A DNA stretch of 64,000 nt from Alphaproteobacteria bacterium (lineage in GTDB: Bacteria > Pseudomonadota > Alphaproteobacteria > GCA-2731375), in assembly GCA_965232515.1 (NCBI GenBank), contig CBDDPY010000002.1:5226193-5290192 (forward strand), written 5' to 3'. A model generated the notes under the pieces. The model saw nothing but the letters and a program-made list of their open reading frames with translations, made no database searches and was not told the origin of the DNA. Each line of letters starts with the position of its first letter. Position 1 is the first letter of the stretch. The translations under genes were made by a program, and so were the position numbers. Positions 53,803 to 64,000 of the stretch are shown here, in pieces.

Positions 53803-54363
53803 TCAGATCCGTTCCGACAGCCAGATGGCGAGCCGCGTGCCGGCCTTGATGCCGCGGCTCAGCACCGGGTAGGCGGGCGCCTGCTCGGCGTCGTGTTCGA
53901 GTGCCGTTTTCCGGTGCTCTTCTTCTTCCGCGCCGAAGGACTCAATGGTTTTTTTCAGCGCCGGCTCGTCGTCGCCGAGTGCGTCCGCCTGTTTCTTGTA
54001 GTGCTCGACGATCACCTCTTCGACCGCCTCCGTGCAGGCCATGGCGGCCTTCTCGCCGATCAGCGCCGTGCCCGCGCCCAGCATGAACCCGGCCGCGCGC
54101 CACAGCGGTGTCAGCGCCGTCGGCCGCACCCGCCGCTCCACCAGCAGGCGGTTGAACTCGGCCAGGTGCACGTCCTCGGCCGCGGCCATTTCGGCCACCA
54201 CCGGCTCGGATTTCGTGCCGGCCAGGACGGCCAGCTGTCCTTTGTAGATCTGCACCGCGCCGAACTCGCCGGCCTGGTCGACGCGGATGATGCGTTCGAT
54301 CAGCGCCCGGTCCGACGGGTCGCCGGGCAGGCGTTTGCGGGGCGCGCGCTTTTTCGCCGTCAT
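53803..54363 (-). CDS. coq7: demethoxyubiquinone hydroxylase (Coq7 family)
   Basis: Internal ATG of ORF 53803..55014. RVDQAGEFGAVQIY, diiron motifs EDVHL and EEEHR. Confidence 0.85.
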   Translation of the reverse strand: MTAKKRAPRKRLPGDPSDRALIERIIRVDQAGEFGAVQIYKGQLAVLAGTKSEPVVAEMAAAEDVHLAEFNRLLVERRVRPTALTPLWRAAGFMLGAGTALIGEKAAMACTEAVEEVIVEHYKKQADALGDDEPALKKTIESFGAEEEEHRKTALEHDAEQAPAYPVLSRGIKAGTRLAIWLSERI

Positions 54364-54860
54364 GCCGATCGTCCGGCGCGCCGCGCCATGCTGAGGCTGA
54401 AGCCGGCCAGCGCCAGCGAGGCCAGCAGGTTGTAGCCGGCCATAGAGATCCCGAACAGCGACCAGGCGACCTCGTCGCAGCGCACCACCGGCGTCGCCTG
54501 GATCTGCGCCAGCAGCTCCTGCACCGAGCCGGCCGCGCCCGATGGGCCCGTGCAGGCCTCGGTGCCGGCCCACCAATGCTGCTCGATGCCGACGTGATAG
54601 CCGGCGATGCCGGCATTGACCATGAACGCGAGCGCGCACAGACCCAGCAGAATGGTCAGCGGCGCCCGGCGCCCAGCGAGCACGAGCGCCAGCAGGCTGA
54701 TAGCCAGCGCCACGCCGTAAGGCCAGCGCTGGTAGATGCAGAGGACACAGGGCTGAAGATCGAAGCCGTATTGCGCCAGAAACGCCGCCGCGAGCGCGCC
54801 GGCGCTGGCGAGTGCGATCAGGACCGGCGACCGTGCCGGTGTGGCCATGGCCATCAGCAT
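54360..54860 (-). CDS. dsbB: disulfide bond formation protein B family
   Basis: 166 aa, four TM helices, CVLC redox pair in the first loop and C...C in the second. ATGA overlap with coq7. Confidence 0.8.
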   Translation of the reverse strand: MLMAMATPARSPVLIALASAGALAAAFLAQYGFDLQPCVLCIYQRWPYGVALAISLLALVLAGRRAPLTILLGLCALAFMVNAGIAGYHVGIEQHWWAGTEACTGPSGAAGSVQELLAQIQATPVVRCDEVAWSLFGISMAGYNLLASLALAGFSLSMARRAGRSA

Positions 54861-54902
54861 GGAGAGAGATATAGCGCTTGGACGGGGGTCGCGAAACCCG
54901 CG

Positions 54903-55481
54903 TCAGAGCAGTTTCAGTGCGGCGAAACCGCCCACCAGCAGGATCACGAACAGCACGAACAGCAGGTTCAGCCGCTTCTCGATGAAGCCGCGGATCGGTT
55001 CGCCGAACTTCCACAGCAGCCCGGCGACGACGAAAAAGCGCAAGCCCCGGCCGATCACCGACGCGGCGAAGAACGCGCCCAGGCTGAGCGCTGTGACGCC
55101 GCTGGTAATGGTGATCACCTTGTAGGGAAAGAAGGTCAGCGCGAAGATGAACACGGCCCAGGCGCCGTATTCGTTATAGCCGGCCTGGAAGCTGTCGAAC
55201 TTGGCCGCGGCGCCGTAGAAATCGATGATCGCCTGGCCCACGGTCTCGAACAGGAAGAAGCCGATGGCGTAGCCCGCGAACCCGCCCAGCACCGAGGCGA
55301 TGGTGCAGATCGTGGCGATCTTCCAGGCCTGCCGGCGGTTTGCCAGCACCATGGGCATCAGCATGACGTCGGGTGGAATGGGAAAGAACGAGCTCTCGAT
55401 AAAGCTGATCGCGGCCAGCGCCCAGTTGGCGCGCCGGTGGCCGGCCAGGCGCATGGTCCAGTCGTAAAGCGGGCGGATCAT
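54903..55481 (-). CDS. yqaA: YqaA/DedA-type (VTT-domain) membrane protein
   Basis: 192 aa, SFIESSFFPIPPDVML motif. Confidence 0.8.
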   Translation of the reverse strand: MIRPLYDWTMRLAGHRRANWALAAISFIESSFFPIPPDVMLMPMVLANRRQAWKIATICTIASVLGGFAGYAIGFFLFETVGQAIIDFYGAAAKFDSFQAGYNEYGAWAVFIFALTFFPYKVITITSGVTALSLGAFFAASVIGRGLRFFVVAGLLWKFGEPIRGFIEKRLNLLFVLFVILLVGGFAALKLL

Positions 55482-55621: not shown

Positions 55622-55662
55622 GCCCCCGTGGCGGAATTGGTAGGCGGGCGTGACTCAAAATC
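55622..55662 (+). pseudogene. 5' half of a tRNA-Leu(CAA) gene, truncated just after the anticodon loop (island junction)
   Basis: GCCCCCG-TG-GCGGAATTGGTAG...CGTGA-CTCAAAA-TC shares GTGGCGGAATTGGTAG and the CTCAAAA loop with the intact gene at 57006. No variable arm, T arm or 3' acceptor strand follows; the sequence turns AT-rich. Confidence 0.75.
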
Positions 55663-55780: not shown

Positions 55781-56959
55781 ATGGCCGATGCGAACATCAG
55801 CCTGATGGGCGGCAAGCTCCACGTCTACAAGCGGGAGAACAGCCGCTACTGGCAGTGCTCCACCTACCTGGCCGGCAGGAACCGGCGGGTCAGCACGAAG
55901 GAAGAAAGCCTGGCCAACGCGAAGCTCTTCGCGGAGGACTGGTATCTTGAACTACGCGGCAAATACCGCCGCGGCGAGGTCAAGAACGAGAAGACCTTCC
56001 GCGAGGCGGCGAAGGTGTTTGAGCGCGAGTTCGAGATCATCACCGAGGGCGAGCGCAGCCCCCGCTATGTGCAGGGCCACAAGGAGCGCCTGCGGGTGCA
56101 TCTAAACCCGTTCTTCGGCAACAAAGGCCTTTCGGAGATCACGCCCGGTCTGGTCCAGGAATACCGGCTACATCGCCGCGAGACGTCGCGCACAGGCAAG
56201 CCGCCGGCGCGCAGCACGATTCATCAGGAAATCGTGTGCCTGCGACAGGTGCTTAAGACAGCCATCCGTCATGGCTGGTTGCAGCATCTGCCGGACCTGT
56301 CGATGCCTTACAAGACATCGGGAAAACTGGAGCATCGAGCGTGGTTCTCACCAGATGAATACCGCAAGCTTTACGAGGCGACGCGCCGCCGTGCCCAACA
56401 GGCAAAGGGCCGCCGCTGGCAATGGAATTGCGAACAGCTGCATGATTTTGTGCTGTTCATGGCCAACACGGGCCTGCGGCCGGACGAAGCCCGTCGTCTT
56501 CAATACCGCGATGTGGAGATTGTCGAGGATGACGCCACCGGCGAAACCATCCTTGAAATCGAGGTCCGGGGTAAGCGCGGCTTTGGCTACTGCAAGAGCA
56601 TGGCCAATGCGGTGCGTCCGTTTGAGCGCCTGGTCAGGCGCAACGACCCGGAGCCGTCAGACCTGATCTTTCCGGGCAACCACCGGGAGCTGCTGAACAC
56701 CATCCTCGAGGAAGAGGGCCTGAAGTTTGACCGGGATGGCCGGCGACGCACGGCGTATAGCCTGCGCCACACCTACATCTGCTTTCGCCTCATGGAAGGG
56801 GCGGATATTTACCAGATCGCCAAAAACTGCCGTACCAGCGTCGAGATGATCGAGAAGTTTTATGCCTCTCACATCAAGACCAGCCTCGACGCCGCTGCGA
56901 TCAACGTCCGCCGCCAGCGGCCGAACCGCAACAGCCGACAACCGGCCAGTCCTGCCTAA
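55781..56959 (+). CDS. tyrosine-type site-specific integrase
   Basis: 392 aa after GGGAGG. C-terminal catalytic pattern RPDEARRL...LRHTYICF...IEKFYASH (R...HxxR...Y). Confidence 0.9.
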   Translation: MADANISLMGGKLHVYKRENSRYWQCSTYLAGRNRRVSTKEESLANAKLFAEDWYLELRGKYRRGEVKNEKTFREAAKVFEREFEIITEGERSPRYVQGHKERLRVHLNPFFGNKGLSEITPGLVQEYRLHRRETSRTGKPPARSTIHQEIVCLRQVLKTAIRHGWLQHLPDLSMPYKTSGKLEHRAWFSPDEYRKLYEATRRRAQQAKGRRWQWNCEQLHDFVLFMANTGLRPDEARRLQYRDVEIVEDDATGETILEIEVRGKRGFGYCKSMANAVRPFERLVRRNDPEPSDLIFPGNHRELLNTILEEEGLKFDRDGRRRTAYSLRHTYICFRLMEGADIYQIAKNCRTSVEMIEKFYASHIKTSLDAAAINVRRQRPNRNSRQPASPA

Positions 56960-57005: not shown

Positions 57006-57092
57006 GCGGGCGTGGCGGAATTGGTAGACGCGACGGCCTCAAAAGCCGTTCTTCGAAAGAAGGTGTCGGTTCGACTCCGACCGCCCGCACCA
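57006..57092 (+). tRNA. tRNA-Leu(CAA), intact, class II with long variable arm
   Basis: Acceptor GCGGGCG/CGCCCGC, anticodon stem ACGGC/GCCGT with loop CTCAAAA, T arm GTCGG-TTCGACT-CCGAC, encoded CCA. Possible promoter TTGGCC-17-TATGTA at 56968-56996. Confidence 0.9.
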
Positions 57093-57193: not shown

Positions 57194-58327
57194 ATGGCAC
57201 ACGATTCCTCCCAAGTAGTTCTTCCGGATTTGGACTACGAAATGTGGGAGACAATTCGGGCGGAAATTGCAGCCGAGTACGCGGAACCTCACAACAAGCC
57301 CTGGATTTTGGGCTTCTCAGGCGGCAAGGACAGCACCGTCGTCGCCCACCTGGTTATCGAGCATTTGTTGTCGCTGCCGCGCAGCGAAAGAATCCGTGAG
57401 GTTCATATCGTTGCCAACGATACGCTCGTGGAGAGCCCGTTGGTCATCTCGCATATCTGCAAGGTCCAGGACGATATCCGCAAGGCCGTCGATGCGTTTC
57501 AGCTGCCTGTCGTTGTCGAGACAACGTCACCGGACCCTGAGCATACCTTTTGGGTAAACCTCATCGGACGCGGATATCCATCGCCGAATCGGTCCTTCCG
57601 CTGGTGCACGGATCGGATGAAGATTCAGCCGACCAGCACTTACGTCAAAAAGCGCGCCCATGAATCCGGTGAAGTGATCTTGCTCCTGGGTGTAAGGCGC
57701 GACGAAAGCGCAACGCGCGCCGGGAGTGTCGCCCGCTATGACAACGGTGAGCGCCTGAACCGCCATAATGACCTTCTGGGCTGCTGGGTTTTTCGTCCGA
57801 TCGTTGACGTGACAACGGATGAGGTTTGGGAGTTGCTGGCGACGGAGGTTCCGCCGTGGGGTGGGTCGCACGACGACCTTATAAAGCTGTACCGCAATGC
57901 CGGTGGTGGTGAGTGCCCGGTCGTGACCAGCCAGAGGGATGCGCCGTCATGCGGCACGACGTCGTCCCGGTTCGGTTGCTGGACATGTACGGTGGTCGAA
58001 AAGGACCGAAGCTTGCAGGGCTTCGTTGATGCGGGTTTTGGAGAGTTTACACCCCTGCTCGACTTTAGGGACTGGCTCGTATCGATCCGCAATGACCCGG
58101 AGAGACGGTTGGCGCGTCGCCGCGATGGACGCGTTACGATTGCATCAAATGGTATTCACATACCTGGCCCCTTTACACTCGCTACCCGAGCAGAAATACT
58201 GGAGAGACTACTGAAGCTACAGCAGGAAGTCGGGCGAGAGCTTATTTCAGAAGCGGAGATAGAACGTATCCGAAGCCTTTGGGCGGAGGATGCTCTCAGC
58301 GCTGCGGCACGGTCCGCAGCACAATAA
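57194..58327 (+). CDS. DndC/SspD-like PAPS-reductase-fold ATP pyrophosphatase (DNA sulfur-modification type)
   Basis: 377 aa with PP-loop GFSGGKDS (aa 40-47), SFRWCTDRMKIQP and Cys cluster GGECPVV...SCG...SRFGCWTCTVV. Confidence 0.8.
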   Translation: MAHDSSQVVLPDLDYEMWETIRAEIAAEYAEPHNKPWILGFSGGKDSTVVAHLVIEHLLSLPRSERIREVHIVANDTLVESPLVISHICKVQDDIRKAVDAFQLPVVVETTSPDPEHTFWVNLIGRGYPSPNRSFRWCTDRMKIQPTSTYVKKRAHESGEVILLLGVRRDESATRAGSVARYDNGERLNRHNDLLGCWVFRPIVDVTTDEVWELLATEVPPWGGSHDDLIKLYRNAGGGECPVVTSQRDAPSCGTTSSRFGCWTCTVVEKDRSLQGFVDAGFGEFTPLLDFRDWLVSIRNDPERRLARRRDGRVTIASNGIHIPGPFTLATRAEILERLLKLQQEVGRELISEAEIERIRSLWAEDALSAAARSAAQ

Positions 58328-58357: not shown

Positions 58358-58564
58358 ATGCCGAAAAACGTTGTCGTGTTGCTGCAAAGCGACGAAGGGC
58401 GCTCTTTGGTTCGTAAGAAGTGCCGCGCAGCAAGTGTGCGCATGAGTACGGTCGAAGAATTGATAGAGGCTGAGCTGGATCAGCAGGGCAAGATGCGGAA
58501 GGCCGGTCTTTGGGAAGAATTTGACCGGGTATTCGACGAAGCCGCTCCGGAGGATGCAGAGTAA
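58358..58564 (+). CDS. small hypothetical protein (68 aa) inside the dnd-like operon
   Basis: Its stop overlaps the ATG of the next gene (TAATG at 58562-58566). It has a basic N-terminal half and an acidic C-terminal tail. No family recognised. Confidence 0.5.
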   Translation: MPKNVVVLLQSDEGRSLVRKKCRAASVRMSTVEELIEAELDQQGKMRKAGLWEEFDRVFDEAAPEDAE

Positions 58565-60630
58565 TGCATTTGCGTGCCGTGGATCTCCGGGACTGGCGCT
58601 CTTACCGACACGCTCGATTTGAGTTTCCCACACCAAACGACGGCCGCAACGTCATTCTGGTTCGAGCACCCAATGAATACGGCAAGACGTCGTTCTTCGA
58701 GGCGATCGCTCTCGGTCTGTTCGGTCGAGAGGGGTTGTTCCTGGTGCCGCGCGCACGTGTCGCGACCAATGGTGATCTTTCCGAACGACAGGCCGTCACC
58801 TACAGCCAGTTCCTGGCCGGTACGCTCCACAGGCGTGCGCTTGCCCAGGGGCGGCAGAGCTGTTCCGTCACGCTTGAGTTAGAAGACGAAGACGGTGAAC
58901 CCGTCGAATTAACGCGCAAATGGCACTTCGCGTCGAATGGCCAGCACAAGCCTTACGACGATGAACTTCTGATTTTTGAAGGCCACGGCCGTCGCCCGGT
59001 GGCGCCGCCTGCTACGGTGACTGATCGCGACGGCTGGTACCGGGAATACATTGCCAACACCTTTATCCCTGCGCCGCTGGCTGAGTTCTTTCTCTTCGAC
59101 GGAGAGCAGGTTCAGCGATACGCCAACCGGGGCATGTCGGGGCAAATTCGCATCGGCATTGAAGGCCTGCTTGGTCTTCCTGTTCTCCGAAGCCTGAAGG
59201 ATTCGCTCCTGCGATATGCGCAGGCACGCCGGTCCAGTGCCGCGTCGCCCTCCGATGAAAAGGTCCGGGCAGTGGAGCTTGATATCGATCGCCTGAAACA
59301 GGATATCGCAAGCAAGGAGAAGGTGCTCGAAGACGTGGATTCGCTCCTTCCGGGATTGCAGTCGGAAAGCGATGAACTTGCGCAGCGTCTCGGCGGCGGC
59401 GGTGAAGGCACAATGGCCATGGTCGCCGACCTTATCCGCGAGGAAGAACGCTTTAGGTCGGAGGCGGGCAGGCAAACTGAAGCTCTTATGAAGCTGCTTG
59501 CCGAGGATGTTTCGCTGGCGCTGGCTGGTTCCGCGCTCCGTGAACAAACGGTCAAGCGCTTGCAAGCGGAAGAGTTGCGCGAAAGCTGGGAGTCCGGCCG
59601 TAACCAGGGGAATGTCAATCTGGACCGCTACATCGCAGACCTGTCTGGTCGCGTTGCGAGTCTGGAACCGCCCATTGAAGGACAGCAGCGTGATGATGTT
59701 CTCGATGCGGCCCGCACGGCCTGGGAAGCGCTTTGGCACCCACCGCCGGAGGGATGTGCCGACGACTATCTCCACAAGGGACTGACTGGATCGGCGCGAT
59801 CACAGGCAATTGAGCGGCTGACCGCAATCGGTGAGCGCTCGGGCAGCGAACTGGCAAAGCTGATTGCCCAGCGACGATCATTCGTGGAAATGGCGGAAGC
59901 GAAGAAACGCGAATGGTTGTCTGTCGAACAGAATGCCCCTGAGGCGGAGCGCCTGAGTGAACGCCTGAAGGAGGTCAGCGAAGAGATCGGTGAACTCAAG
60001 ACCCGGCGCGACACGGCGAAGCGGGAGATTGAGTCTCTGCAAGGCGAGCTGGCTGCGCGCCTGCAGGAGTTTGGCCGCTATACCGACAGCATCGGACGCG
60101 GGGCGCCGGCGCTTCGTCGGGCTTCTCAAGCCGAAGCGGCCGCCAAGCTCATTGACGATATTCTCAGGGATGCAGTGCCGACGCAGGTGAATGCTGTGGC
60201 CGATGCGATGACGAAAGCGTGGAAGTCGATGGCGCACATGGACTTCCGTGTCGATCGCATCGAGATCACTGCGGACTGTGAAGTGAAGATGCTCAATAAG
60301 AAGGATGAAAACCTGCACGACGTCGAAAAGTCTGCCGGTGCCAGCCAGATTTTTACCCAGGCACTGATTTGGGCGATCAACCATGTGAGCGGTCAGGAGT
60401 TCCCGTTCATTGTTGATACGCCTTTGGCCCGGCTAAGCCGGGATCATCGTCTCGGCGTATTGAAAACCTTCCCTGATCGAAACGGCCAGGTGATCCTGCT
60501 TTCGACTGACGAAGAGGTGGTAGACGACAAGCTTGAGGCGATTGAGAAGCGGATCGCGGCTGCCTATCAGCTGCGTGTGCGTGACGATGATGGCGTGGCG
60601 GTGACCACTATCGAAGAAGACAAGCTGTAG
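58564..60630 (+). CDS. DndD/SspC-like SMC/ABC-type ATPase
   Basis: 688 aa, Walker A APNEYGKTS, long coiled-coil middle, signature KSAGASQ, Walker B/D-loop FPFIVDTPLARLSRDHR, LLSTDEEV. Confidence 0.8.
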   Translation: MHLRAVDLRDWRSYRHARFEFPTPNDGRNVILVRAPNEYGKTSFFEAIALGLFGREGLFLVPRARVATNGDLSERQAVTYSQFLAGTLHRRALAQGRQSCSVTLELEDEDGEPVELTRKWHFASNGQHKPYDDELLIFEGHGRRPVAPPATVTDRDGWYREYIANTFIPAPLAEFFLFDGEQVQRYANRGMSGQIRIGIEGLLGLPVLRSLKDSLLRYAQARRSSAASPSDEKVRAVELDIDRLKQDIASKEKVLEDVDSLLPGLQSESDELAQRLGGGGEGTMAMVADLIREEERFRSEAGRQTEALMKLLAEDVSLALAGSALREQTVKRLQAEELRESWESGRNQGNVNLDRYIADLSGRVASLEPPIEGQQRDDVLDAARTAWEALWHPPPEGCADDYLHKGLTGSARSQAIERLTAIGERSGSELAKLIAQRRSFVEMAEAKKREWLSVEQNAPEAERLSERLKEVSEEIGELKTRRDTAKREIESLQGELAARLQEFGRYTDSIGRGAPALRRASQAEAAAKLIDDILRDAVPTQVNAVADAMTKAWKSMAHMDFRVDRIEITADCEVKMLNKKDENLHDVEKSAGASQIFTQALIWAINHVSGQEFPFIVDTPLARLSRDHRLGVLKTFPDRNGQVILLSTDEEVVDDKLEAIEKRIAAAYQLRVRDDDGVAVTTIEEDKL

Positions 60631-60642
60631 AGACCGTCCGCC

Positions 60643-62175
60643 ATGCCTCTGAGCATCATGGATGTCGTGAATTCGCAGTACCGTACGACAAAGGCGGCGG
60701 ACGATCAGTGCGACCAGCTTCTTCGGCGATTGGGTTACAGGGTGCGGTACCTGCCGGCGCGCTTGGCAATTGCGCGGTCGCTGTCTCTACTTGAACAACC
60801 GGAGCCGCTTGGCTCGGGCGAAGAGGAAGAGATGGCCGTTGGTATCCGCGGTCAGCAGCTCTTCGGAGACGGTAGCGACCCTGCGGCCTGGATGGCGCTG
60901 ATTTCCCAGCGATCAGGCACCAGCGACCTCGAACGCCGTGAGTTTCAGAATATTGTCGGCGCACACTGGCAACGCGGCGCGGACTTGTTGGCGAGGGATT
61001 GGGAGGAATCGGCTGAGAGCCTTGGCACATTCGTGTCGCGTCTGGCTGAGCTTGCCAATCTCGCCATAGATGATGGTGGCAAGTCCTTCGGTGGAGAGTT
61101 TGTTGAGTCCCCGGCACCGCTTGCGACAAACGTGACGCTGCCAGTCGGGCCTGTTGCCGAGGACGCCGAAACGGGCGAGCCGGTGGAGTTTCCGCTGAAC
61201 GCTCCCGGCGGCAGTCCGCACATGGCAATCATGGGTGGCACCAACTCCGGCAAGACATATACGGCGGTGACGATGCTGAAGCGGCTTAGGTCCATCGGGC
61301 CGGTGCCGATTCTTGCGTTTGACTTCAAGGGTGACCTGTCCGAGCGGCTTGCGCCTGACATAGGTGCGGACGTGGTGTCGCCGCCCAGATCGCCGGTACC
61401 GTTGGACGTCCTTGCGGTGCAGCTGCAGGACGAAGTTGGACTGCGTGAGGCGGCGGGGCGCATTCGCGAGTCGATCGGTCGCGTAAAGAGTTCAAGAATC
61501 AGCGGCGTTCAGTCTGATGCCCTGCGCGAGGCGGTGTTTCAGACGCTGCGAACACGGAGGGATGATACACCGTCAACGCTGAGCAACGTGTCGCGCGCAC
61601 TGGAAGCCGAGTACCAGCGGCGAAACCGCCGCCCTGACGAATTGACGGCGACCCTCAACGAGCTGAATCAGTTTTCCCTCTTCGATCCTCAAATGAGGCC
61701 GGAGGAGTTTTTTAGCCGGAGCTGGATTATCCGGCTGCCGCAGGATAGTACGGCTGAAGTGCGCCGCCTGATCATCAACCTGACGCTCGATGCGCTTGAT
61801 CGGTGGCTAAACTCGCAAGAGGACGCCCCTGAGGTGGACGGCCGACGTGCATTGCGCCACGTGTGTATGCTCGATGAAGCGCATGTGATTCTGGCGACGA
61901 AGCTGCCGGCCCTGACAAACCTGATCCGAATGAGCCGGTCCAAGGGCGGGGTCATTATGCTCGTCTCGCAATCGCCGGACGATTTTGAAGGCGAGGAAGA
62001 AGGCTTTTTAGACAACATGGGGCTGGTGCTAGCTTTCAATACGCAGGCGAAAGCCGGACCGACGCGTCGGATTTTCGGTGCCGGTGCCTCTCTCCCTGAC
62101 CTGACAGTCGGTGAAGCCCTGTGCCGAATTAGGTCGGAAGCCCGGACGCGCAGGATAACAGCGTGGCGGGCGTGA
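60643..62175 (+). CDS. fusion protein: DndE-like N-terminal domain plus FtsK/HerA-type P-loop ATPase
   Basis: 510 aa. The N-terminal roughly 130 aa (YRTTKAADDQCDQLLRRLG...LPARLAIARSLSL...GIRGQQLFG...AHWQRGADLL) follows my recollection of the DndE pattern. The C-terminal part has Walker A GGTNSGKT, AFDFKGDL, Walker B CMLDEAH and LVSQSPDDF. Confidence 0.55.
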   Translation: MPLSIMDVVNSQYRTTKAADDQCDQLLRRLGYRVRYLPARLAIARSLSLLEQPEPLGSGEEEEMAVGIRGQQLFGDGSDPAAWMALISQRSGTSDLERREFQNIVGAHWQRGADLLARDWEESAESLGTFVSRLAELANLAIDDGGKSFGGEFVESPAPLATNVTLPVGPVAEDAETGEPVEFPLNAPGGSPHMAIMGGTNSGKTYTAVTMLKRLRSIGPVPILAFDFKGDLSERLAPDIGADVVSPPRSPVPLDVLAVQLQDEVGLREAAGRIRESIGRVKSSRISGVQSDALREAVFQTLRTRRDDTPSTLSNVSRALEAEYQRRNRRPDELTATLNELNQFSLFDPQMRPEEFFSRSWIIRLPQDSTAEVRRLIINLTLDALDRWLNSQEDAPEVDGRRALRHVCMLDEAHVILATKLPALTNLIRMSRSKGGVIMLVSQSPDDFEGEEEGFLDNMGLVLAFNTQAKAGPTRRIFGAGASLPDLTVGEALCRIRSEARTRRITAWRA

Positions 62176-62183
62176 CGGTGAAG

Positions 62184-63242
62184 TCAGGTTCCGCCGTAGG
62201 CTAATTGGAAGGCGTGCCAGGTTACTTCTGGACGCCCAAGAAGGTCGGGCTTCTGGCCCAGATCCTTCACAATCAGACCGTTCACTTCGGCAAGGTACCG
62301 TATTTCGTCGGCTGTGACGCTGTAGATGCCGCGTTCAAGCTGCGCCGGTCCATGCCGCAGGCTCACGTAAATCTTTCCAGCAGGCTTCAGAAGAGATGAA
62401 AGTACGGTCAGGGCCTTCGGTCGGTCCTCGGGATGCAGGTGCATCCAGACAGCACTGACGAGAATATAGTCATATTTTTGCTCGAAATTCAGGACTTTGT
62501 TCAGCTCAGGGAGTGCATCCTTTATCCATCGGATGCCTGATTTCGGATGCTGATTGCGCGCGAGAGCGAGCATCTTCTCGGAAGGCTCCACGGCAACGAC
62601 ATCTGCGCCGTGTAAAGCCATCCATGCTGCATCTCTCCCGGAGCCGGTGCCTACATCGAGCACATTCGGTTTCTTGTCTGCTGATTTGGTTATCTCGGCT
62701 GCGAGGTCGGGGTGAATATCCTCGAACTGGACGGACTCGTAGTTGTCAGCGAGGTCACGCGCGTAGGTGTCGTAATAGGCCAAAGATCGCAGGCTACGGT
62801 CTGTATCGGATGGTTTGGCCTCATTATTCACTAATAACGCTCCAAAGAGACCAAGGCTGATGGCAGCCGCTGCGCCGAGCAGGCATTGAAATACAGTTCT
62901 GACCAGCCTGGACCGGGTAAAGAAACCCGTCCCTTCGCCTGACACGTACCCTGCTGCGTTGTAGGCCTCGATCCAGTCGAGATACTTCTGCATGAGGTAC
63001 CGAAGGCGGGTCAGCACAAGTATCAAGCCGATATTGCCCACCGCCGCGAGGAAGAGCAGTGCAAGCTTGAACAGAGCGAAATCGCCAACCTTGGTGACGC
63101 CGAACCATAGGCCGCCGGTGAGGGTCATGGCAATCAGCGGGATTTGCCACATCAACTGGTTCAAAGACCTGAAGGTGATGCAATTCTGTTCGTATGCGAC
63201 CTGCATCCGCTCGAATTCCATATCTTCAGGCGATTTGGTCAT
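62184..63242 (-). CDS. membrane-anchored class I SAM-dependent methyltransferase
   Basis: The N-terminal roughly 140 aa carries three hydrophobic helices. The C-terminal part has motif I VLDVGTGSGRD and ILVSAVWMHL. ATG at 63242 (or GTG at 63245). Convergent with the ATPase gene, with 8 bp between the stops. Confidence 0.75.
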   Translation of the reverse strand: MTKSPEDMEFERMQVAYEQNCITFRSLNQLMWQIPLIAMTLTGGLWFGVTKVGDFALFKLALLFLAAVGNIGLILVLTRLRYLMQKYLDWIEAYNAAGYVSGEGTGFFTRSRLVRTVFQCLLGAAAAISLGLFGALLVNNEAKPSDTDRSLRSLAYYDTYARDLADNYESVQFEDIHPDLAAEITKSADKKPNVLDVGTGSGRDAAWMALHGADVVAVEPSEKMLALARNQHPKSGIRWIKDALPELNKVLNFEQKYDYILVSAVWMHLHPEDRPKALTVLSSLLKPAGKIYVSLRHGPAQLERGIYSVTADEIRYLAEVNGLIVKDLGQKPDLLGRPEVTWHAFQLAYGGT

Positions 63243-63400
63243 CACTCCACCGGATCAAAGATGTGCAGGAATGGCTGAATGTGGCGGCAGCATTGGGACT
63301 GACCATCAGGCTCCGATCGGCACCGGATCGGCTAGCTGTGTCATATCTGTGTCATGGATTTTACTCGGGCGTGGAAACTTCTCATAACCCTTTGAAATAA

Positions 63401-63445
63401 TGGCGACGATGAGAAGATTCGAACTTCCGACCTACGCATTACGAA
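63401..63445 (-). pseudogene. 3' half of a tRNA-Thr(CGT)-like gene (anticodon loop to CCA), att-type remnant
   Basis: The reverse complement reads TTCGTAA-TGCGT-AGGTC-GGAAG-TTCGAAT-CTTCT-CATCGTC-G-CCA. No matching 5' acceptor or D arm lies to the right. Confidence 0.65.
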
Positions 63446-63645
63446 CGTTGTCCGGCTGATTTTCAATAATTAAATAAATCAACAAGTTAAAAGTTCCTGA
63501 CGCACTGCTCTAATAAGCAATATTGTATACTTTGAAGCATTTTTGGATTTTACTGTATCATAACTGTGTCACGGGTTATATTCAGAATGCCGCACGAACA
63601 AAAACATATAAGACGATGAATACAAAATAAACGAAGATTTGACGC

Positions 63646-64000
63646 ATGGCAAATATTAGAAAGCACGTTGGGAAGAACGGAGAGGTTAGTTACAAGGTTC
63701 AGATTCGCATGGCCGGTACCAAGCCGAGATATGCGAGTTTCAGGAGGCTGTCGGACGCAAAAGAATGGGCGCGGGAGGAAGAGACGAAGCTCCAGCGTCG
63801 TCGTGGCGGGTTGCAGCCGCAGGACCGCCATACGCTTGCCGAAGCCATCGATAAGTTCATTGCAGAGGAGATGGCGCGGCGGCCGGAGCGCGACCAGTAC
63901 TGGTTCAAGTGCGGCCTTGCATGGTGGCGCAGGGAGCTTGGCCCGATGCAGTTGCGCTCGATTACACCGGCTGACCTCGAGCGCGGGCGGGATATGTTGG
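63646..64000 (+). CDS. tyrosine integrase, N-terminal part (runs off window)
   Basis: Absent from the ORF track because it is open-ended. My translation MANIRKHVGKNGEVSYKVQIRMAGTKPRYASFRRLSDAKEWAREEE...ITPADLERGRDML has the typical arm-binding/SAM-like integrase N-terminus, preceded by AT-rich DNA. Confidence 0.65.
   Translation, partial: MANIRKHVGKNGEVSYKVQIRMAGTKPRYASFRRLSDAKEWAREEETKLQRRRGGLQPQDRHTLAEAIDKFIAEEMARRPERDQYWFKCGLAWWRRELGPMQLRSITPADLERGRDML

Follow-up and report, generated by a model that had tools for sequence, protein, structure and literature searches.

Analysis of a 64,000-nucleotide stretch of contig CBDDPY010000002.1 (assembly GCA_965232515.1, Alphaproteobacteria bacterium), here called the window, makes it probable that a protein of 510 amino acids (aa) encoded in it is the DndEi-type subunit of a compact, mobile writer of phosphorothioate (PT) DNA modification, composed of a short DndC, a small protein, DndD and a fusion of DndE to a HerA/FtsK-class ATPase. 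The gene for the fusion, dndEi, is an open reading frame (ORF) with an ATG start at positions 60643 to 62175 on the forward strand, and its assignment draws on Pfam matches, an AlphaFold2 (AF2) model and homologs. A preliminary description of the same DNA had read the gene as a DndE-like domain joined to a P-loop ATPase; the ORF and all the motifs quoted there are present exactly as stated.

A DndE domain and a HerA/FtsK-class ATPase in one polypeptide

The dndEi ORF is a real gene under clear selection, and the match of its motifs lies far above chance. A word-indexed search returned 614 homologs, the best 120 of which are nearly all full-length proteins of ~500 to 518 aa. When 1.84 billion representatives were searched exhaustively with HMMER, 251 clusters (50% identity) matched dndEi at E ≤ 1e-10, and many of them have lengths of ~500 to 520 aa and align with it from end to end even at 25 to 30% identity. 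An alignment of 43 dndEi sequences has a mean column identity of 67% and no variation at the catalytic residues. NCBI labels close homologs "DndE family protein." Pfam assigns to the product a DndE domain plus DUF87/HerA_C/TrwB, and the AF2 model of the whole protein has a mean predicted local distance difference test score (pLDDT) of 87.9 with residues 140 to 154 as the single disordered stretch. ORFs that overlap dndEi in antisense were discarded as being without support; such ORFs are a common by-product of GC-rich coding DNA. A scan for promoters and terminators gave nothing informative.

The N-terminal part of the protein, residues ~11 to 138 (positions 60673 to 61056, forward strand), is a DndE domain. 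PF08870 matches residues 14 to 120 over positions 3 to 107 of its 111 (E = 3.9e-8), with 30.1 bits for the full protein and 34.0 bits for the N-terminal 140 aa, at a curated cutoff of 25. The characteristic strings are found at residues 13 to 17 (YRTTK), 39 to 49 (ARLAIARSLSL), 67 to 75 (GIRGQQLFG) and 108 to 112 (HWQRG). An AF2 model of residues 1 to 142 alone has a pLDDT of 91 and contains strands at ~12 to 16 and 64 to 69 and helices at 17 to 30, 36 to 47, 79 to 91, 98 to 122 and 127 to 138. The elements follow each other as strand, helix, helix, linker, strand, helix, the long H2b helix (98 to 122) and the C-terminal helix (127 to 138), that is, as two tandem ribbon-helix-helix (RHH) units in the layout described for DndE, and the short loops and helix lengths fit the DndD-associated "clade-1" type of DndE. 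When this model was searched against the PDB with Foldseek, all 15 best matches were DndE crystal structures (4lrv, 7x4e and 5wtu), 4lrv with a TM score of 0.79 (normalized to the target) and a root mean square deviation of 2.8 Å; RHH chains of the F-plasmid relaxosome matched more weakly and ranked below the DndE structures. The model of the isolated domain was needed for this result, since the Foldseek list of the full-length protein is dominated by ATPases, which hides the DndE match. A single-sequence phmmer search of the N-terminal domain against the PDB found nothing relevant.

The preliminary description had named a generic helix-turn-helix or RHH domain of a mobile-element ATPase as the alternative for this region. 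With a Pfam DndE score above the cutoff and a list of top Foldseek matches made up of DndE throughout, profile and structure agree that the region is specifically DndE and not such a generic domain. The preliminary description also took DndE as the component that binds nicked double-stranded DNA; it is currently seen as a tandem RHH module for target recognition and not mainly as a nick binder.

A flexible linker (residues ~139 to 159; positions 61057 to 61119, forward strand) connects the DndE domain to the ATPase; it is delimited by pLDDT values below 50 for residues 140 to 154 and by the alignment. Its sequence and length vary among homologs, yet it is present in all of those aligned. The ATPase domain comprises residues ~160 to 510 (positions 61120 to 62172, forward strand), assigned by Foldseek, Pfam and PADLOC. 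Pfam matches it to the DUF87/HerA, HerA_C, TrwB and TraG families, the NCBIfam match is the archaeal DNA importer CedB, and PADLOC matches are to the mad8, DndH and HerA models, of which the DndH models cover residues 193 to 454. The best structural match in Foldseek is the C-terminal domain of DndH (7es4; E = 3e-15; TM score of 0.77 normalized to the target), followed by VirB4 (4ag6), HerA (4d2i), TrwB (1e9s) and FtsK (2ius), all five with a probability of 1.00. The placement of this part among HerA/FtsK-type translocases in the preliminary description is thereby borne out.

The catalytic motifs of the ATPase are intact, and by its sequence the domain belongs to the HerA/FtsK class. The Walker A motif GGTNSGKT (residues 198 to 205; positions 61234 to 61257, forward strand) has invariant G198, G199, S202, G203 and K204, and the Walker B motif CMLDEAH (residues 408 to 414; positions 61864 to 61884, forward strand) has invariant D411, E412, A413 and H414; the string AFDFKGDL lies between them at residues 225 to 232. 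Further downstream (positions 61927 to 61986, forward strand), invariant columns and an AF2 strand mark the segment RMSRSKGG (residues 429 to 436), a core strand (436 to 442) and LVSQSPDDF (440 to 448), in which the strand ends in the invariant sensor-1 residue Q443. In the HerA/FtsK signature, a sensor-1 glutamine ends core strand 4 and the arginine finger lies just upstream (PMC10853773). The arrangement of R429/R432, strand and Q443 agrees with this signature, and R429 and R432, which are invariant and located just upstream of the strand, are candidates for the arginine finger. No membrane segment was found in the product (maximum 19-residue hydropathy of 1.09).

Two other identities for the protein were considered and rejected. 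DndH/DptH does not apply, since the window protein has only 510 aa, matches DndH models only in their C-terminal ATPase part and contains none of the other DndH domains. Membership in the MADS system, suggested by PADLOC matches to mad2 and mad8, was judged after a literature check to be similarity at the level of domains only.

Operon partners and conservation of the four-gene module

The dndEi gene is the last of four genes in the order short dndC, small protein, dndD and dndEi, separated by intergenic gaps of 30, −1 and 12 bp. The link to the dnd genes assumed in the preliminary description is firm: dndC and dndD are identified by TIGR03183 and TIGR03185, respectively, and the genes are syntenic in related loci. 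Neither dndA nor dndB nor dndFGH is present in the cassette.

The first gene (positions 57194 to 58327, forward strand; TIGR03183, E = 1.7e-107) encodes a DndC of 377 aa with the PP-loop sulfurtransferase core. It covers positions 4 to 364 of the 447 of TIGR03183 and ends ~100 residues short of the C terminus of canonical DndC, but the conserved cysteines, identified by comparison with the invariant cysteines of canonical DndC, are kept (Cys 138, 241, 253, 262 and 265). The second gene (positions 58358 to 58564, forward strand), an ORF whose stop overlaps the start codon of dndD, encodes a small protein of 68 aa of the Pfam Sp-DndD type, a family whose members NCBI names "DNA modification system-associated small protein." To judge by sequence comparison, it looks like a split or detached tail of DndC, i.e., the part missing from the short DndC. 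Matches to the C-terminal ~55 positions of TIGR03183 were obtained for 17 of 30 small-protein homologs and to the corresponding part of PRK06850 for 14 of them; PF20306 is matched by 9, and no other family by more than one. The match to PADLOC DndC models has an E value of 9e-4. When the small-protein alignment served as a profile query, the matches listed were all small proteins, which made this search unsuited to reveal full-length DndC; hhalign was used instead and aligned the small-protein alignment with that of seven canonical DndCs at columns 406 to 453 of 501 (84.8% probability; E = 6.6e-6). Of three canonical DndCs, a hidden Markov model of the small protein recognized one (that of Aliivibrio, but not those of Pseudomonas aeruginosa and Streptomyces).

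The third gene, dndD (positions 58564 to 60630, forward strand), is identified by TIGR03185 (E = 5.6e-64), by the DndD and PbeC models of PADLOC and by synteny in related loci, in which its pairing with dndEi is kept; it ends 12 bp upstream of dndEi. The best PADLOC model is PDLC02736, labeled PbeC (E = 2e-214). Pbe systems contain an ATP-binding cassette (ABC) ATPase with a CxC motif, and a system of this type was ruled out because DndD lacks the CxC zinc hook (its only cysteines are at 100, 398 and 572) and because a PbeA-like partner is absent: no gene for an HKD nuclease-superfamily 2 helicase is found in the cassette or recurs nearby in related loci. For the same two reasons the PbeC label looks like an issue of naming, and it appears to cover proteins of the DndD clade. 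We also observed that the DndD so labeled pairs with a clade-1-like DndE.

To see how far the module is conserved, 80 genome loci encoding relatives were collected, 72 of which have at least 3.5 kb of upstream sequence and were used for upstream counts. They derive mostly from Alphaproteobacteria and Gammaproteobacteria, many of them from sponge-associated metagenome-assembled genomes (MAGs). The combination of dndC, a small ORF and dndD is present in 68 of the 72 loci and colinear in 67, and the small protein is encoded immediately upstream of dndD in 72 of the 80. Outside the module the gene content differs from locus to locus, and only DndB-like DGQHR proteins (26 loci), two small-protein families and a methyltransferase (10 loci) recur. 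The same four-gene module is found on the megaplasmid of Methylorubrum extorquens AM1 (NC_012811.1, ~1013.9 to 1018.8 kb), with identities to the window proteins of 69% for dndC, 50% for the small protein, 40% for dndD and 45% for dndEi. One genome of the set, OZ241893.1, has two DndD-DndEi pairs (loci L019 and L025), only one of which has dndC beside it.

Relation to known systems and competing explanations

The fusion of DndE to a translocase is not new. It received the name DndEi in Flavobacteria, the protein of a single species has been assayed, and a comparative-genomics study has catalogued it. The name refers to an extended form of DndE known from Riemerella anatipestifer, Flavobacterium indicum and Kordia algicida (Barbier 2013 and Zheng 2016, as summarized in PMC6435447); for the R. 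anatipestifer protein, PT modification is reported to depend on the helicase activity, and its ATPase to be stimulated by DNA containing GAAC/GTTC (PMC6435447). A microbiome survey noted "rare dndEi" in Bacteroidales (PMC7464106), and HerA/FtsK "clade-3" domains fused to DndE beside a DndD-related ABC ATPase were described by Rakesh, Aravind and Krishnan in 2024, who grouped the DndE-HerA/FtsK fusions and some DndH motors into a single clade (PMC10853773). The suggestion in the preliminary description that the fusion is the likely place for a new activity is not supported in view of the published DndEi with its helicase and motif-stimulated ATPase (PMC6435447) and of PMC10853773. Like DndEi, the window protein joins DndE to a further ATPase/helicase domain in a single chain, and its gene is part of a PT modification cluster. 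Architecture and gene neighborhood are exactly those of the fusions of PMC10853773, from which nothing substantive differs, and the closeness of the window ATPase to the C-terminal domain of DndH (7es4) fits the clade placement given there; the fusion is mentioned only in passing in that study, and the short DndC and the origin of the small protein lie outside its analysis. Compared with canonical stand-alone DndE (Escherichia coli B7A; 4LRV), the window protein shares the fold and the position in the operon after dndD, but canonical DndE has 115 to 142 aa and no ATPase, whereas the window protein has ~370 additional residues that form the motor.

How the four proteins may work together can be outlined by analogy. 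The DndE domain, together with the DndD ABC ATPase, would read the target motif, and binding of the motif would turn on the ATPase of dndEi. This ATPase may assemble as a ring, as HerA, FtsK and VirB4 do, and would locally unwind or translocate the duplex, so that the backbone becomes exposed to the PP-loop/Fe-S enzyme DndC for insertion of sulfur. The step driven by the ATPase is modeled on R. anatipestifer DndEi, with its need for helicase activity in PT modification and its motif-stimulated ATPase (PMC6435447). Since the cassette has no dndA, the sulfur may come from a housekeeping cysteine desulfurase whose gene lies elsewhere in the genome.

Several points weigh against this assignment. 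The cassette has neither dndA nor dndB, the ring assembly of the window protein is predicted by analogy, and its recognition of a DNA target motif is putative. Orthology to the assayed DndEi of R. anatipestifer is inferred by way of Flavobacteriales proxies and not from the assayed protein itself: a search that started from a remote low-GC representative led to Flavobacteriales "DndE family proteins" of 508 aa (Aequorivita and Myroides) with the same Pfam architecture, though not to Riemerella itself, and one such protein aligns colinearly with window residues 41 to 481 (E = 5e-30). The identity is ~26%, and the clade of the window protein is mostly proteobacterial and uncharacterized. The best structural match of the motor is the C-terminal ATPase of DndH/DptH, and DndH is a restriction protein of ~1,700 aa with a helicase-like domain, a target recognition domain, an inactive methylase and a restriction endonuclease domain (PMC10853773). 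Finally, DndD-DndEi pairs occur without adjacent dndC in L025 and in Aequorivita nionensis (CP130281.1; L081, 1 to 13519), where no recognizable DndC is adjacent; such a pair can thus work in other contexts.

These last observations bear on the reading that the DndD-DndEi pair, together with the small protein, acts mainly against invaders in a restriction-like or sensing manner, with the motor pumping foreign DNA and DndC marking self or being dispensable. In structure and in PADLOC, the ATPase is matched best by DndH and the MADS defense protein mad8, the best PADLOC model of its partner ATPase carries the label PbeC, and "HerA/FtsK capture" has been proposed for DndH and other systems (PMC10853773). 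The pair in L081 resides in a defense island that encodes a type IIG restriction-modification enzyme, an Sp-DndD small protein, an AAA_15/21 ATPase, an HNH nuclease, a Piwi protein (prokaryotic Argonaute), a ParB-like protein and an Mrr nuclease, and Mesorhizobium amorphae has, behind a standard dndA-C-D-E set, another set of small protein, DndD′ and DndE::FtsK. However, no nuclease domain is present in the dndEi product and none is conserved beside it in related loci, dndC is kept in 68 of 72 loci, the published DndEi is needed for modification (PMC6435447), and DndD has no CxC motif, the defining feature of the Pbe-type clade. We therefore regard a mainly anti-invader function as unlikely, and a modification subunit as the better description.

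The M. amorphae set belongs to a second kind of fusion, DndE::FtsK-alpha::FtsK/SpoIIIE, which is encoded on a plasmid of Burkholderia glumae (L087, 10383 to 11924) and on pM0123d of M. amorphae (L082, 12980 to 14470). These fusions occupy the same operon slot as dndEi in the window, and their DndE part is homologous to the window DndE (30% identity; E = 7e-12), but their motor is a true FtsK/SpoIIIE (PF01580, E = 8e-47) with FtsK-alpha and, beyond the P-loop, has no detectable similarity to the window ATPase. Because the slot is the same and the DndE parts are homologous while the motors are unrelated, it appears that, on the modification side, the motor has been exchanged or captured. On the M. 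amorphae plasmid (L082, 5790 to 14470), the genes are dndA, short dndC, dndD and stand-alone dndE; those for a small protein, another DndD and DndE::FtsK follow directly, so that there is one DndC for two DndD-DndE pairs. One may go further and propose that the four genes are a self-sufficient mobile PT writer with an exchangeable motor (HerA-like in the window, FtsK-like in B. glumae and M. amorphae) and possibly a role in defense, but we consider this quite improbable. If it were true, "translocase capture" would have taken place also on the modification side, besides DndH, and a ring motor could make PT marking processive or double as an anti-invader arm where DndFGH is absent.

A third reading sees in the protein a conjugation or partition ATPase (TraD/TrwB/VirB4-like, with a TraY-like RHH domain) of an integrative element that is a neighbor of the dnd genes by chance. 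The Foldseek matches to VirB4 and TrwB, the weaker RHH matches to F-plasmid relaxosome chains, the name [quoted passage not shown] given to some homologs at NCBI and the integrases on both sides of the cassette agree with it. However, the order dndC-sp-dndD-dndEi is maintained in 67 of 72 loci with varying flanks, and this synteny largely refutes it. Furthermore, no type IV secretion system or relaxase gene recurs as a neighbor among the related loci, a transmembrane anchor is missing (maximum hydropathy of 1.09), and in Foldseek DndE structures rank above the relaxosome chains and the DndH C-domain above VirB4 and TrwB, which leaves such an ATPase a very slight chance. An artefactual origin of the fusion, with a separate dndE joined to an ATPase gene by a frameshift or a misassembly, has in its favor only that stand-alone DndE is the norm and is refuted, with a negligible residual probability, by hundreds of independent full-length homologs of 500 to 518 aa from many and diverse sources and by the linker in all aligned homologs.

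Genomic island and significance of the module

The cassette is located on a horizontally acquired island, as seen from a drop in GC content (0.57 to 0.59 across the island compared to 0.65 to 0.68 in the rest of the window) and from the tRNA gene, tRNA fragments and integrases around it. Along the island, a remnant of the 5′ half of a tRNA-Leu (positions 55627 to 55660; repeat D1, 82% identity) is followed by a gene for a tyrosine integrase (positions 55781 to 56959, forward strand; Pfam integrase domains) and by tRNA-Leu(CAA) (positions 57006 to 57092, forward strand; ARAGORN, and Rfam with 60.8 bits), which lies directly upstream of the dnd operon. Downstream of the cassette, and convergent with it, is the gene for a class I S-adenosylmethionine-dependent methyltransferase of 353 aa (positions 62184 to 63245, reverse strand; Pfam Methyltransf_25/11), whose end is 8 bp from the dndEi stop. 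The protein is membrane anchored, with at least two strongly hydrophobic segments in its N-terminal region. In 10 related loci, homologs with 42 to 48% identity are encoded downstream on the other strand. The methyltransferase is a recurrent accessory neighbor; whether it is a member of the Dnd system is uncertain. A 3′-half tRNA fragment, read from the sequence (positions ~63399 to 63455, reverse strand), and the N terminus of an apparent second integrase, which runs off the window (positions 63646 to 64000, forward strand) and was recognized by eye without a profile match, come next.

Upstream of the tRNA-Leu remnant, an ORF of 403 aa (positions 53803 to 55014, reverse strand) encodes a C-terminal COQ7 domain (E = 7e-63) with a ~230-aa N-terminal extension of unexplained nature. 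A tRNA-Val predicted by ARAGORN within this ORF (positions 54068 to 54149) was not confirmed by Rfam and is probably a false positive.

As the fusion has already been named, assayed and catalogued, the gene itself adds little. Its value is a practical one, in that it defines a compact four-gene PT module that does without dndA, dndB and dndFGH. This module is widespread in Alphaproteobacteria and Gammaproteobacteria and in MAGs of sponge symbionts, and its presence in the genetically tractable M. extorquens AM1 provides a ready system in which to address the role of the motor and the question of the small protein and the DndC tail.

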